From the IMG/VR virus record IMGVR_UViG_2541047944_000005, positions 1 to 39,595 of that record: a DNA stretch of 39,595 bases; one strand, given 5' to 3'. Made by a program: the position numbers and the translations under genes. Shown here piece after piece: positions 1 to 39,595 of this stretch (position 1 is the first letter of the stretch; each line of letters begins with the position of its first letter). This DNA is from a virus. Taxonomy: Duplodnaviria; Heunggongvirae; Uroviricota; Caudoviricetes. Below the pieces are notes generated by a model. The model had not been told where the DNA came from. It saw nothing but the letters and a program-made list of their open reading frames with translations, and searched no databases.

Positions 1-993
1 CTAATCGATGGACAGTTTATGGACACTTTCAGCCAGCGGATTAAAGTTGATTGCGTCCTGTAAAAAGTCCGGTGAAAAATGCGCATAAGTCATCGTTTGC
101 TGAATAGTGGCATGTCCCAGAATCCGTTGCAGGGTAACGATGTTTCCCCCGTTCATCATGAAATGCGTGGCGAACGTATGACGCATCACATGAGTAGCCT
201 GTCCTTTTGGCAAATCAGGCTTCACCTCCTGGAGGATCTCGCGAAACCGGAGATAATCGACATCGTACAGCGGCCCGGTTCGGCGGGTTTTAATCAGCGA
301 GAGCACGGCATCAGACACCGGAACCGAACGAGACTTCCCGTTCTTGGTGTTGAAGAACGTCACGCGATTACCGACGATATGCTCCCCGCGTAATTCCGCC
401 GCCTCACCCCACCGAGCTCCCGTAGAAAGACACAGAATGGCGACACGACGCGCATCACCTTCGAGTCGCTCAAGAAGCCGATCAATCTCATCATCAGAAA
501 GAAAGGCCATTTCTGTGTTCTGAACTTTCAGTTTGCGTATACCGCGTACAGGGTTCGCGTTGTGAAAAACCTCCGTCTCAATCAATACTGAGAACATCGT
601 TGACAAAACGCACAAGTCACGATTAATGCTGGACGGCATTAATCCGGCCTGTAATTTCTCTGACCGATATTCAAGCATAAATTTTCGCGTCATCTGGCTG
701 GCGCGTGGATCTCCCATTTCACGTATCACCTTTTCCAGCCTGACCCTGTAGGAATCTCCGTAAGGCTGATTACGTCCGTCAAGCATCCACCAGTCCTCTA
801 TCAGTTCAGATAACCGCCGCTGATCAGCTGGTTTTGCCTGCCACGGCTTGTCATGAAAATTCTGTAAAACATACCTCTCAAACTCCTGGGCCTTCGATTT
901 CAGGGTGAAAGTTTTTCGAATCCGCTTACCCTCAGCACCCTGTGGTCTTACATCAACCTTATAACGTCCGTCTTTGAGTTGCTTAATCGACAT
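1..993 (-). CDS. int: tyrosine integrase, P2 Int family
   Basis: 330 aa from ATG 991-993 with GGAGGGG RBS (track ORF 1-1008 starts 5 codons earlier at TTG). C-terminal HVMRHTFATHFMMNGGNIVTLQRILGH...YAHF tyrosine-recombinase pattern; colinear with P2 Int as recalled. Confidence 0.9.
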   Translation of the reverse strand: MSIKQLKDGRYKVDVRPQGAEGKRIRKTFTLKSKAQEFERYVLQNFHDKPWQAKPADQRRLSELIEDWWMLDGRNQPYGDSYRVRLEKVIREMGDPRASQMTRKFMLEYRSEKLQAGLMPSSINRDLCVLSTMFSVLIETEVFHNANPVRGIRKLKVQNTEMAFLSDDEIDRLLERLEGDARRVAILCLSTGARWGEAAELRGEHIVGNRVTFFNTKNGKSRSVPVSDAVLSLIKTRRTGPLYDVDYLRFREILQEVKPDLPKGQATHVMRHTFATHFMMNGGNIVTLQRILGHATIQQTMTYAHFSPDFLQDAINFNPLAESVHKLSID

Positions 994-1062
994 GATTAGC
1001 CCCTCCAACGGATAAATTAATCAGGCACTCCTTGCGAAATGCAATTCGCTCAATGTGTAGCG

Positions 1063-5728: not shown

Positions 5729-6044
5729 GTATGCCGTTCTCACAAAAAAACCACTTGCCATGCCGCAATCAGTCAGGTTACATTTCCGCTGCACCTCACA
5801 AAACGAGTGCCGGGATTGGAACCCCGCTGACTATGCACGCGCACAACCGCGCCAGCGGTTTTTTTGTGCGTACCGTATCGCCACGTCTTTTTCGCGTCAG
5901 AATTATGGTGGGGCGTATGGGGCCGACTTCGGTCGGGCCGGATTCGTGCGTAGCCGGTAGTTCCAACCCTGTACGTCTCACCACCCCGAGCTTGGAACCT
6001 CTGGATGGTGAGTTTTTAAAACTTACTACGTACGAGGCCACCCC

Positions 6045-36257: not shown

Positions 36258-37367
36258 ATGACCGACACCACCATGCAATTGCTCAGTCAGAGCACAGACC
36301 CCGTGAAAATGCCGGATTTTGATATTCTCGCGGAGGGTAAAACGCTGTCAGGCGTGGCAGAGCGCCTGATGAGCCTGTCACTGACCGACAACCGGGGATT
36401 TGAGGCGGACCAGCTCACCATCACGCTGGATGATGCGGATGGTCAGTTGCAGCTACCGCCACGGGGCGCGCGCCTGACGGTTCTCATTGGCTGGAAAGGA
36501 GAACCGCTGACAGAAAAAGGCACTTACATTGTTGATGAAATCGCTCACGAAGGACCGCCGGACAGGCTGACTGTTTCAGCCAGAAGCGCAGATTTTCGGG
36601 ATGAATTTAACGTTAAACGTGAGGTGTCCTGGCATGATGTGACCGTTGAGCGTGTGGTATCCGCCATCGCTCATCGGTATGGTCTGAAACCACAAATCAG
36701 CGAAATGCTGATGGATATCGAAATCGACCACGCCGACCAGACCGAAGAAAGCGACATGTCCTTCCTTACGCGCATGGCGGAAATGCTGGGCGCAATCACC
36801 ACGGTAAAAAGCGGCAATCTGTTATTCATCATGCCAGGTGGTGGCGTGAACGCACAGGGCCAGCCGTTGCCCTCGTTCGCCATTACACGCAGCAGCGGCG
36901 ATCGCCATCAGTTCCGTATTGCTGACCGCGAGGCGTATACGGGGGTACGCGCCTACTGGCTTGATCTTAATTACGGGAAAAAGAAAAAAGTCAGCGTGAA
37001 ACGCCGCAAACCACCAAAACCCCAAAAGGAGAAAAGCAGCAGCCGTGAAGGAGATTATATGGAAGGCGCGGAAGGCAATGTGTTTGTGTTACGCAAGACC
37101 TATCAGAACGAACAGGCAGCAAGACGCGCAGCGGCGGCAAAGTGGCAGCAACTACAACGCGGAGCCGCATCATTCTCCATCACGCTGGCGCGTGGACGTG
37201 CAGAACTCTACCCCGAAATGCATGGTACGGTAACAGGATTTAAAAGCGAGATTGATAATCAGGACTGGATCATTGCAAAAGCCGAGCACACCATTGATAA
37301 CAGCGGCTTTACCACGCAGCTTGAGCTTGAAGCAAAAATCCCGGAATGGATAGCAGAAACAGAGTGA
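36258..37367 (+). CDS. D: tail protein D (late control gene D family)
   Basis: 369 aa from ATG 36258 after GGGAGGG RBS (track ORF starts earlier); size and position before ogr as P2 D. Confidence 0.75.
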   Translation: MTDTTMQLLSQSTDPVKMPDFDILAEGKTLSGVAERLMSLSLTDNRGFEADQLTITLDDADGQLQLPPRGARLTVLIGWKGEPLTEKGTYIVDEIAHEGPPDRLTVSARSADFRDEFNVKREVSWHDVTVERVVSAIAHRYGLKPQISEMLMDIEIDHADQTEESDMSFLTRMAEMLGAITTVKSGNLLFIMPGGGVNAQGQPLPSFAITRSSGDRHQFRIADREAYTGVRAYWLDLNYGKKKKVSVKRRKPPKPQKEKSSSREGDYMEGAEGNVFVLRKTYQNEQAARRAAAAKWQQLQRGAASFSITLARGRAELYPEMHGTVTGFKSEIDNQDWIIAKAEHTIDNSGFTTQLELEAKIPEWIAETE

Positions 37368-37409
37368 GCAACTTAGAATAGCGGCAGCACCACGTTAAGG
37401 GAGGTCGCT

Positions 37410-37670
37410 ATGTTCCGTTGTCCGCTTTGTGGCGCATCTGCCCGTATCCGCACCAGTCGTTCGGAAAATGATTCAAACACCGTACGGAAAAAATATTACC
37501 AGTGTAACAACCTGGAATGCGGCATAAGTTTCTCAACACTGGAAGCTTTCCATAAATTCACATCGAAACACGCCCCCGGCGTTCACTCTTCAGAAGGTAT
37601 CCCGTGGCATGAGTTGCCAGCTTCACACAGGGGAAACAATCAGATGAGTTTGCCTTTATCTCAGAATTAA
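37410..37670 (+). CDS. ogr: Ogr/Delta-family zinc-finger late transcription activator
   Basis: MFRCPLCGASARIRTSR...YYQCNNLECGISF matches the P2 Ogr Cys4 motif as recalled (MFHCPLCQHAAHARTSR...YHQCQNVNCSATF); AAGGGAGG RBS. Confidence 0.8.
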   Translation: MFRCPLCGASARIRTSRSENDSNTVRKKYYQCNNLECGISFSTLEAFHKFTSKHAPGVHSSEGIPWHELPASHRGNNQMSLPLSQN

Positions 37671-37861
37671 CAGGCAGAATTGCCGGAGTAACAAAAAAGC
37701 GATAGATTACGCGCGGGTGCCTTTCGGCTGATGGTCGGAGGGAATACCCGAAGGCCGGATGTGGAAAGGCCCCGGAAAACATCTCTGTTTAACCGAGGCC
37801 CTAACATATCTACCTTAAGCAAGTGATAGGTTAGCGCCTCTCCAACAAAGGAGCAAGCGCT

Positions 37862-38002
37862 ATGTCGCAAAAATCGCTTACGGCCATCACGTTCTGCGTG
37901 ACGGTAATCCTCATAATCTGGATGCTGCACGGTTCGCTGTGTGAAATACGGATGAGCTTCTGGGGAGCGGAGTTTGCGGCGTTCTTACAGTGTAAGCAGT
38001 AA
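37862..38002 (+). CDS. Hok/Gef-family type I toxin peptide
   Basis: Hand-translated 46 aa MSQKSLTAITFCVTVILIIWMLHGSLCEIRMSFWGAEFAAFLQCKQ: TM helix, SLCEIR and AAF motifs as in Hok/Gef; GC-rich fold-back-prone leader 37700-37860. Confidence 0.65.
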   Translation: MSQKSLTAITFCVTVILIIWMLHGSLCEIRMSFWGAEFAAFLQCKQ

Positions 38003-38088
38003 GGAAACCGCGACGGGGGAGCAATCCCCCGTCAATCGGTTGCCAGGGTAAGGTCGATAAGGCACCCTATCTCACAGACATGAACAAC

Positions 38089-38122
38089 AAACCCGCAGCG
38101 TAAAAACTGCGGGTTTTCTTTT
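38089..38122 (+). terminator. intrinsic terminator after the hok-like gene
   Basis: aacccgcag-cgtaaaaa-ctgcgggtt followed by TTCTTTTT. Confidence 0.55.
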
Positions 38123-38153
38123 TGGTTCCCTCACTCATGAGGACACCAAAAAC

Positions 38154-38184
38154 AAAGCCCACAGCATAGAATGCTGTGGGCTTT
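38154..38184. terminator. bidirectional intrinsic terminator, probable serS terminator
   Basis: aaagcccacagcat-agaa-tgctgtgggcttt flanked by A-run upstream and T-run downstream. Confidence 0.5.
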
Positions 38185-38302
38185 TTGCATTCAAAGATGG
38201 ACGTTATATGGACACTTAAAAATAAAATCCATTTATTTTCAAATAATTAAACTTCTACTTAAAGCGCCCGCAGGCGCTTTTTAGATTCAGAAAAATTGGG
38301 TA

Positions 38303-39595
<1,293 letters not shown>

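Follow-up and report, generated by a model that had tools for sequence, protein, structure and literature searches.

Gene content at the two ends of the window

The window, meaning the whole stretch of DNA analysed here, is 39,595 nucleotides long. It begins with an integrase gene, whose stop codon falls on position 1, and ends with the phage gene ogr, a short hok-like gene and the host gene serS. The first-pass annotation had reported a gene for a 46-residue Hok-like peptide after ogr and before serS, and this arrangement was confirmed. The features that define the two ends are:

1-1008, minus strand: tyrosine integrase of the P2-like prophage (Pfam Int_N, 98.6 bits; Phage_integrase, 70.2 bits)
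7-28, plus strand: arm-type direct repeat GATGGAC-N5-ATGGACACTT in the int-side att arm, sharing TATGGACACTT with 38207-38217
37410-37670, plus strand: ogr, late-gene activator with an Ogr/Delta zinc finger (Pfam PF04606, Ogr_Delta, 57.8 bits; RefSeq annotation in homologous loci)
37862-38002, plus strand: hok coding sequence, 46 amino acids (open reading frame and family profiles; pN/pS 0.11-0.46 against relatives)
38154-38184, no strand: bidirectional hairpin separating the cassette from the att arm (stem of 14 bp; -23.2 kcal/mol, z = -6.36)
38196-38217, plus strand: arm-type direct repeat GATGGAC-N5-ATGGACACTT in the ogr-side att arm, read from the sequence
38261-38280, no strand: att core AAAGCGCCCGCAGGCGCTTT (attR copy), 20 bp, corresponding to the serS terminator hairpin and marking the phage-host junction
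38303-39595, minus strand: serS of the host (open reading frame; annotation in homologous loci)

The early region of the prophage also encodes two RNAs that score above the Rfam gathering thresholds, namely the Hfq-binding RNA isrK (5791-5865, plus strand, 59.4 bits) and, directly after it, a C4 antisense RNA (5901-5988, plus strand, 79.8 bits).

The prophage ends in the serS terminator

Comparison with a prophage-free and a lysogenic genome located the right end of the prophage. In prophage-free K-12, serS and dmsA are separated by 238 bp and hok is absent. Strain WS1933D, which shares 99.6% identity with the window across 37300-38400, carries a prophage between serS and dmsA with int adjoining dmsA; its annotation places a 'phage integrase' beside dmsA, and the gene order is of the P2 type. 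The core AAAGCGCCCGCAGGCGCTTT is common to K-12 attB, WS1933D attL and the attR of the window, with host sequence outside and phage sequence inside. It is found once in the window, and the second copy is located 83 nt left of position 1 according to the comparison with WS1933D, attL having been read in this 99.6%-identical relative and not in the window's own genome. The left arm is thus outside the window, as had been stated at the outset. The junction itself had been expected within 37671-38150, which proved incorrect. The direct repeat proposed as a check does exist, as a 20-bp repeat beyond int in WS1933D, and the segment repeated is 38261-38280 rather than any part of the expected interval. 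The first-pass annotation had further noted that neither a tRNA nor a core could be seen; the former holds, since the window is devoid of tRNA genes and a tRNA was rejected as the integration target, while the latter is true only as long as the window is read without comparison. The core does fall within 37671-38302, the full region given in that annotation.

The core corresponds to the stem-loop of the serS intrinsic terminator. Integration swaps out the U tract of this terminator (38255-38290), so that the serS strand reads GCGCUUUUUUUGUCUCCC at attB and GCGCUUUAAGUAG at attR. A strong hairpin supplied by the phage (38154-38184) is located 80-100 nt further in from the serS terminator, and could serve as an insulator that halts serS read-through before it runs antisense into hok. 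The 22-nt repeats present on both att arms are putative Int arm-binding sites.

A probe spanning attR (38120-38330) was covered to at least 80% in 347 of 5426 complete E. coli genomes. The listing, sampled over the whole ranking, includes 11 genomes without the phage arm, and in 11 of 11 the similarity starts at query base 142, equal to position 38261. A K-12 junction probe was uninformative as a counter of empty sites because attL alone covers more than 80% of it. Record ON470599.1 (10300-12900), deposited as phage vB_EcoM-569R5, contains host dmsA beside an int gene whose DNA is 86.5% identical to that of the window integrase; the presence of dmsA next to int marks this record as a prophage with host flank at the serS-dmsA site.

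With a tyrosine integrase next to att and ogr at the opposite end, the window has the layout of an integrated prophage. Judged by these comparisons, it is a P2-like prophage of about 38 kb (Peduoviridae, P88-like) inserted in the serS terminator between serS and dmsA, with hok situated about 260 bp inside the prophage.

The hok cassette is widespread phage cargo

Searches with 37700-38195 as query returned the P2-like phage records P88, P884B11, 500465-2 and Chuche at 95-97% identity over 76-87% of the query. The cassette of P88 and Chuche is located between the tail gene D/ogr region and int, and similarity to these two phages stops at about 38123-38130. In complete E. coli genomes, the cassette was found in 1556 of 5426, with several sites per genome in some, and the ogr-hok-serS arrangement in 279 of the same 5426. 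Roughly 190 further phage records hold a copy, most of them from Stx-converting phages, and the copies in the listed Stx2a phages are about 82% identical. Similarity to the Stx phages covers query bases 4-368 (37703-38067), extending exactly from the -10 box of the hok promoter to the fbi element described below, and these bounds delimit a functional unit. A DNA pattern scan of viral contigs yielded the 64 unique cassettes used for the conservation counts below. According to a recent survey, Hok is found in 9.3% of Escherichia phages and is enriched in prophages. By the position of the junction and by these alignments, hok is phage cargo placed between ogr and attP and not host DNA.

Different cargo occupies the interval between hok and att in different relatives. 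Genes encoding a Com-like protein and a DNA methyltransferase (mom-type) are located 3' of hok in Chuche (locus L007, 3029-3971) and in an extrachromosomal element of E. coli E110019 (locus L009, 948-1243). In other lysogens this interval holds either an insert of roughly 970 bp with a gene for a hypothetical protein or, annotated where the match is split, a TM2-domain protein.

It should be noted that the ogr-hok-serS element is already annotated in RefSeq and in phage records and is thus already known. Phage-borne hok genes have likewise been catalogued, and a relative, hokW-sokW, has been studied experimentally. The value of the present analysis is a correct annotation, with the right end set at 38261-38280, integration into the serS terminator and hok assigned to the phage.

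The 46-residue peptide belongs to the Hok/Gef family

The open reading frame at 37862-38002 encodes the 46-residue peptide MSQKSLTAITFCVTVILIIWMLHGSLCEIRMSFWGAEFAAFLQCKQ. It matches Pfam HOK_GEF (PF01848) at 30.1 bits against a cut-off of 22 (E 3.7e-7), peptide residues 7-44 aligning to profile positions 5-42 of 42, and phrog_251 at 82.8 bits. BLASTP against R1 Hok gave 39% identity over 31 amino acids, including SLCEIR and E-AAF. Members of the Hok/Gef family were recognized as peptides of about 50 residues with a hydrophobic N-terminal half, a Cys and a Thr in the helix, a Leu-Cys-Glu motif and a later Glu, all of which are found here. The conserved residues of the window peptide are C12, T14, L26-C27-E28 and E37, the counterparts of C16, T18, L30-C31-E32 and E41 in a published Hok logo drawn from 1264 Hok peptides (bioRxiv 10.1101/2025.08.07.668861). 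The hok frame is under purifying selection, with pN/pS values of 0.11-0.46 against relatives and of 0.26 between two lineages without mok, and its 46 codons are undamaged in nearly all cassettes of the viral-contig scan. The profile matches and conserved residues identify the frame as a genuine gene for a Hok/Gef-family membrane toxin, whose toxicity at the membrane is predicted.

Under the name 'Hok/Gef family protein', the exact peptide is already public on at least 1000 contigs; it also appears as 'protein HokA' in some sources. Orthology to HokA was rejected, as the NCBIfam equivalog NF007290 scores 35.8 bits against a cut-off of 89. No defence-system model of PADLOC fits the hok locus.

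Predicted hok transcript, leader RNA and antisense RNA

The following RNA and promoter features were assigned around hok:

37680-37708, plus strand: predicted hok promoter, read from the sequence (-35 TTGCCG at 37680-37685, 17-nt spacer, -10 TAGATT at 37703-37708)
37715-38124, plus strand: predicted full-length hok mRNA, reaching from its start site into the T run of the terminator (position 1 of RF01794 aligns at 37715)
37715-37729, plus strand: tac-like 5' element, pairing in predicted folds with fbi in full-length RNA or locally with 37763-37773 in nascent or truncated RNA
37762-37821, minus strand: predicted Sok-type antisense RNA of about 60 nt, with a single-stranded 5' end, a hairpin at 37767-37801 and then UUUCC; its ends are approximate, placed from the sequence
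37828-37856, minus strand: predicted Sok promoter (-35 TTGCTC, 37856 to 37851; 17-nt spacer; -10 TAACCT, 37833 to 37828)
37840-37853, plus strand: Shine-Dalgarno hairpin, GGAG at 37850-37853 paired with CUCC at 37840-37843 in minimum free energy folds
38011-38034, plus strand: GC-rich stem-loop 3' of hok (-23.6 kcal/mol, z = -4.95)
38052-38067, plus strand: fbi-like element complementary to the mRNA 5' end (15 pairs with 37715-37729 in the minimum free energy fold)
38089-38124, plus strand: intrinsic terminator of the hok transcript (hairpin 38089-38116, -16.3 kcal/mol, followed by the T run UUUUCUUUUU)

Both promoters are predicted from their conservation and position. The hok -10 box reads TAGATT, TAAATT, TAGAAT or TACATT in 63 of the 64 unique cassettes. 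The Sok -10 box TAACCT is invariant in all 64, and in the alignment with the R1-type locus it faces AGGATA, whose reverse complement is TATCCT; the TTG of the Sok -35 box is likewise present in 64 of 64, the spacer being 17 nt in 58 cassettes and 18 nt in 6. A consensus promoter scan of 37600-38320 returned no site at a threshold of 9/12, the two proposed promoters scoring 8/12 and 7/12. The predicted antisense RNA corresponds to the Sok region of R1 in the alignment and folds with z-scores of -3.96 and -2.74.

The leader of the window matches Rfam RF01794 over the whole model (37715-37872; 43.9 bits, E 2.6e-8). The covariance-model search that had been suggested for this locus thus gave a full-length match, with a score below the gathering score of 59. 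In an R1-type control locus (L011), the match covers 182-353, beginning at the 5' end of the leader and stopping at the hok ATG, with 87.2 bits. RF01794 carries the name 'sok antitoxin' and matches the hok-coding strand, spanning the hok mRNA leader up to the ATG; the match consequently tells the strand of hok and does not identify an antisense RNA. Further Rfam matches within 38036-38286, among them a trpB motif, microRNA families and a Thr leader, fall far short of their gathering scores and were dismissed as chance matches. Most of them fall on terminator hairpins.

The predicted transcript is highly structured. Folding of 37715-38122 gave -171.9 kcal/mol (z = -7.67 versus shuffled sequences), and the local 5' hairpin, in which 37715-37729 pairs with 37763-37773, gave -34.4 kcal/mol (z = -4.64). 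The structured, GC-rich leader of the first-pass annotation is accordingly structured and only mildly GC-rich, with 53% G+C in the leader/transcript stretch, and the hok gene does have the terminator of its own that had been ascribed to it. On the fbi side, 8-9 of 9 pairs are retained in 63 of 64 unique cassettes, the changes being C-to-U with preservation of G-U pairs. Two-sided covariation of tac and fbi is impossible to see in this set, as the search pattern fixed the 5' 19 nt and hides variation there. The Shine-Dalgarno helix is 93% paired across 22 variants, with only one-sided G-U changes. The stem-loop at 38011-38034 is likely the protective 3' hairpin of a processed mRNA, by analogy with R1, where mutations in the last stem-loop of the truncated hok mRNA cause loss of function (PMC9841398).

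Covariation of the leader helices was not significant. Among 22 variants, a two-sided change was seen in a single pair, and the observed score was attained in 439 of 500 shuffles, so that the structure rests on sequence conservation and energy. Two types of leader hairpin differ by indels and align badly in this test. RNAalifold applied to 57 mRNAs and to a leader fragment returned partial and mutually differing structures, which indicate only that alternative pairings exist. The case for a hok/sok-type structure is one of homology, energy and conservation.

The upstream reading frames do not reach hok

Two open reading frames upstream of hok bear on the question of mok:

37731-37826, plus strand: 31-codon upstream open reading frame, ending 35 nt before the hok ATG and not a conserved protein
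37759-37818, plus strand: 19-codon upstream open reading frame in the mok-like frame, with TAA at 37816-37818 as its stop (frame translation)

The stops of both frames (37816-37818 and 37824-37826) precede the hok Shine-Dalgarno sequence. No upstream open reading frame of the window crosses 37850, and a mok frame overlapping hok was not found. Of the mok and sok elements that had been expected in the leader, a Sok-type promoter and hairpin as well as tac/fbi pairing are predicted to be present, while an intact mok overlapping hok is absent. The 31-codon frame has no Pfam or PHROG match, and in relatives it is between 4 and 87 codons long. At the site aligned with the R1 mok start, the window has a Shine-Dalgarno-like GAGG (37795-37798) and ATA in place of ATG, and no variant seen has a start codon at the R1 mok AUG position. 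In 22 of the 64 unique relatives, a frame of 61-87 codons starting from one of the same two ATGs reads into hok; the ATG of the 19-codon frame does so in 13 unique relatives. In the allele of WP4-S17-ESBL-03, a sense codon stands in place of the TAA at 37816-37818. The remaining 42 cassettes, including the commonest type and all 16 of the Stx-phage type, have no frame that reads into hok.

In R1, mok stops upstream of the hok Shine-Dalgarno sequence abolish Hok translation (PMC9841398). Since such stops are present in the window copy, strict R1 rules predict silence. Given that no mok frame reaches the hok Shine-Dalgarno sequence, Hok translation is probably controlled directly by the Shine-Dalgarno hairpin together with antisense-triggered decay, rather than by coupling to mok.

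Proposed mechanism and possible roles

The region is best explained as a self-contained type I toxin-antitoxin cassette of the hok/sok type that forms a working pair and that a P2-like prophage carries, as accessory cargo, at its ogr-attP end; we assign this reading a probability of about 0.8. We infer the regulatory scheme by analogy with plasmid R1 hok/sok, which provides the template of an inert full-length mRNA, 3' trimming and antisense decay (PMC9841398). The weak constitutive promoter at 37680-37708 would produce a stable full-length mRNA extending from 37715 to about 38124, which would stay untranslated because its 5' end is paired with fbi (38052-38067) and the Shine-Dalgarno sequence is buried. 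Slow 3' trimming to the 38011-38034 hairpin would remove fbi and allow refolding. As long as the promoter at 37856-37828 drives synthesis of a small and unstable antisense RNA, this RNA would pair with 37762-37821, leading to cleavage of the duplex and no Hok. Once antisense synthesis stops, through loss of the prophage or a block of transcription upon induction or infection, Hok would be made and would insert into the inner membrane, killing or lysing the cell.

Three roles can be considered for such a cassette. Prophage addiction, the killing of cells that lose the prophage, is conceivable at somewhat less than even odds. Assistance with lysis upon induction, on the model of hokW-sokW, appears rather unlikely, and exclusion of other phages is doubtful; R1 hok/sok is reported to exclude T4, according to a citation in PMC8621323.

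We tentatively hypothesize, while holding it well short of even odds, that the 46-residue Hok subfamily of P2-like and Stx2 phages has dropped mok-coupled translation and kept the tac/fbi fold-back, the GAGG box and the Sok promoter, so that Hok would be under the direct control of its Shine-Dalgarno hairpin and of decay triggered by the antisense RNA. Hok synthesis might in addition be tied to the phage late programme by transcription reading through from ogr. If true, a 46-residue Hok subfamily without mok would amount to a simplified form of the paradigm type I system. All that is new in the present analysis, and mildly so, is the apparent loss of mok coupling.

Alternative explanations

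The closed upstream frames could also mean that the cassette is a translationally silent remnant, kept by hitch-hiking with the prophage. Its mok-like frame ends at the TAA at 37816-37818 and the 31-codon frame at 37824-37826, premature mok stops cause loss of function in R1 (PMC9841398), and the 22 of 64 relatives with a 61-87-codon frame into hok mean that the window could be a nonsense variant of such a form. This is difficult to align with the 42 of 64 cassettes in which the frame is lacking, among them the most frequent type and all 16 of the Stx-phage type, or with the R1 mok AUG position, which is without a start codon in every variant seen. Promoters, fbi and Shine-Dalgarno hairpin are all conserved as well. 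The near-universal integrity of the hok frame and the purifying selection acting on it, with a pN/pS of 0.26 between mok-less lineages, favour mok-independent control over a silent remnant, which we regard as improbable.

Another explanation places Hok in the lytic cycle, where RNA reading through from ogr would have a different 5' end, escape the fold-back and give late Hok and faster lysis. No terminator-like hairpin was found between the ogr stop (37670) and hok, including 37671-37714, the first plus-strand site being the one at 38089, and transcription from ogr probably continues across the cassette as far as the 38089-38124 terminator. The hokW-sokW system of Sp5 is moreover induced together with its prophage and doubles phage release (PMC8621323). 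The argument is, however, purely inferential; the cassette's own conserved promoter and fbi speak for expression in the lysogen, and reading through from ogr would not keep the hok Shine-Dalgarno hairpin from folding, leaving this explanation quite improbable. Practically no weight can be given to the last one, in which the prophage ends right after ogr and hok is host DNA of the serS neighbourhood. It draws on general knowledge of P2, where attP follows ogr closely. The first-pass annotation had left open whether hok is phage cargo or host DNA, and only the former stands: the cassette is located between ogr and int/attP in P88 and Chuche and occurs at numerous further sites in chromosomes, similarity to the host begins at 38261 where the prophage arm is missing, and the core is repeated beyond int in WS1933D. 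A peptide unlike Hok, or a hok gene already next to serS in a prophage-free strain, had been named as observations that would count against the original proposal; the peptide aligns with Hok, and the serS-dmsA interval of prophage-free K-12 is without hok. The comparisons with K-12, the attR probe, WS1933D and the phage records together refute a host origin.

Comparison with known hok systems

The closest relatives of the cassette are found in P2-like phages (Peduoviridae; Xuanwuvirus P88, P884B11 and 500465-2; Chuche), where three annotated records call it 'MokW-like host killing' (phrog_251), 46 amino acids encoded by a 141-nt coding sequence. These phages have other integrases and att sites or extra cargo (com and a DNA methyltransferase in Chuche), whereas the phage of the window uses the serS terminator. 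The proteins WP_000078920.1 and WP_000078916.1, annotated by RefSeq in the serS lysogens WS1933D and WP4-S17-ESBL-03 and also in UTI89, represent the same element without substantive difference.

Stx2-converting phages, for example Lyz12581Vzw and Stx2a phages, encode a 46-residue Hok with about 82% DNA identity over 37703-38067 and 35 of 46 peptide residues identical. As in the window, the mok-like frame is absent. The Stx2-phage copies differ in their lambdoid context, their flanks and their terminator.

The hokW-sokW locus of Sakai prophage Sp5 is a phage-borne type I system that was found by experiment to be toxic and antisense-repressed (Takada et al. 2021, PMC8621323). Sp5 is an Stx2 prophage; HokW is made after its induction, and phage release is doubled (PMC8621323). 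HokW has 51 amino acids and starts with MKQQKAM, and its mRNA 5' end is GCGGGTGCTTGAGGCTATCTGCC (primers YO-357 and YO-351), whereas the window peptide starts with MSQKSL and the corresponding predicted mRNA 5' end is GCGGGTGCCTTTCGGCTGATGG. Orthology to HokW was rejected on account of these differences in peptide start and mRNA 5' end from the published primers. HokW represents a different subfamily, and the PHROG label 'MokW-like' should therefore not be read as orthology.

Plasmid R1 hok/sok differs from the window in requiring a 70-codon mok that overlaps hok; the window has neither a start codon at that place nor a frame reaching the hok Shine-Dalgarno sequence. R1 hok/sok is borne by a plasmid and the window cassette by a prophage. 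The two are alike in the Hok motifs and the predicted 5'-3' fold-back. The window leader matches RF01794 below the gathering score, and a predicted antisense promoter occupies the position that the R1 Sok promoter has in the alignment, with a spacer of 17 nt.
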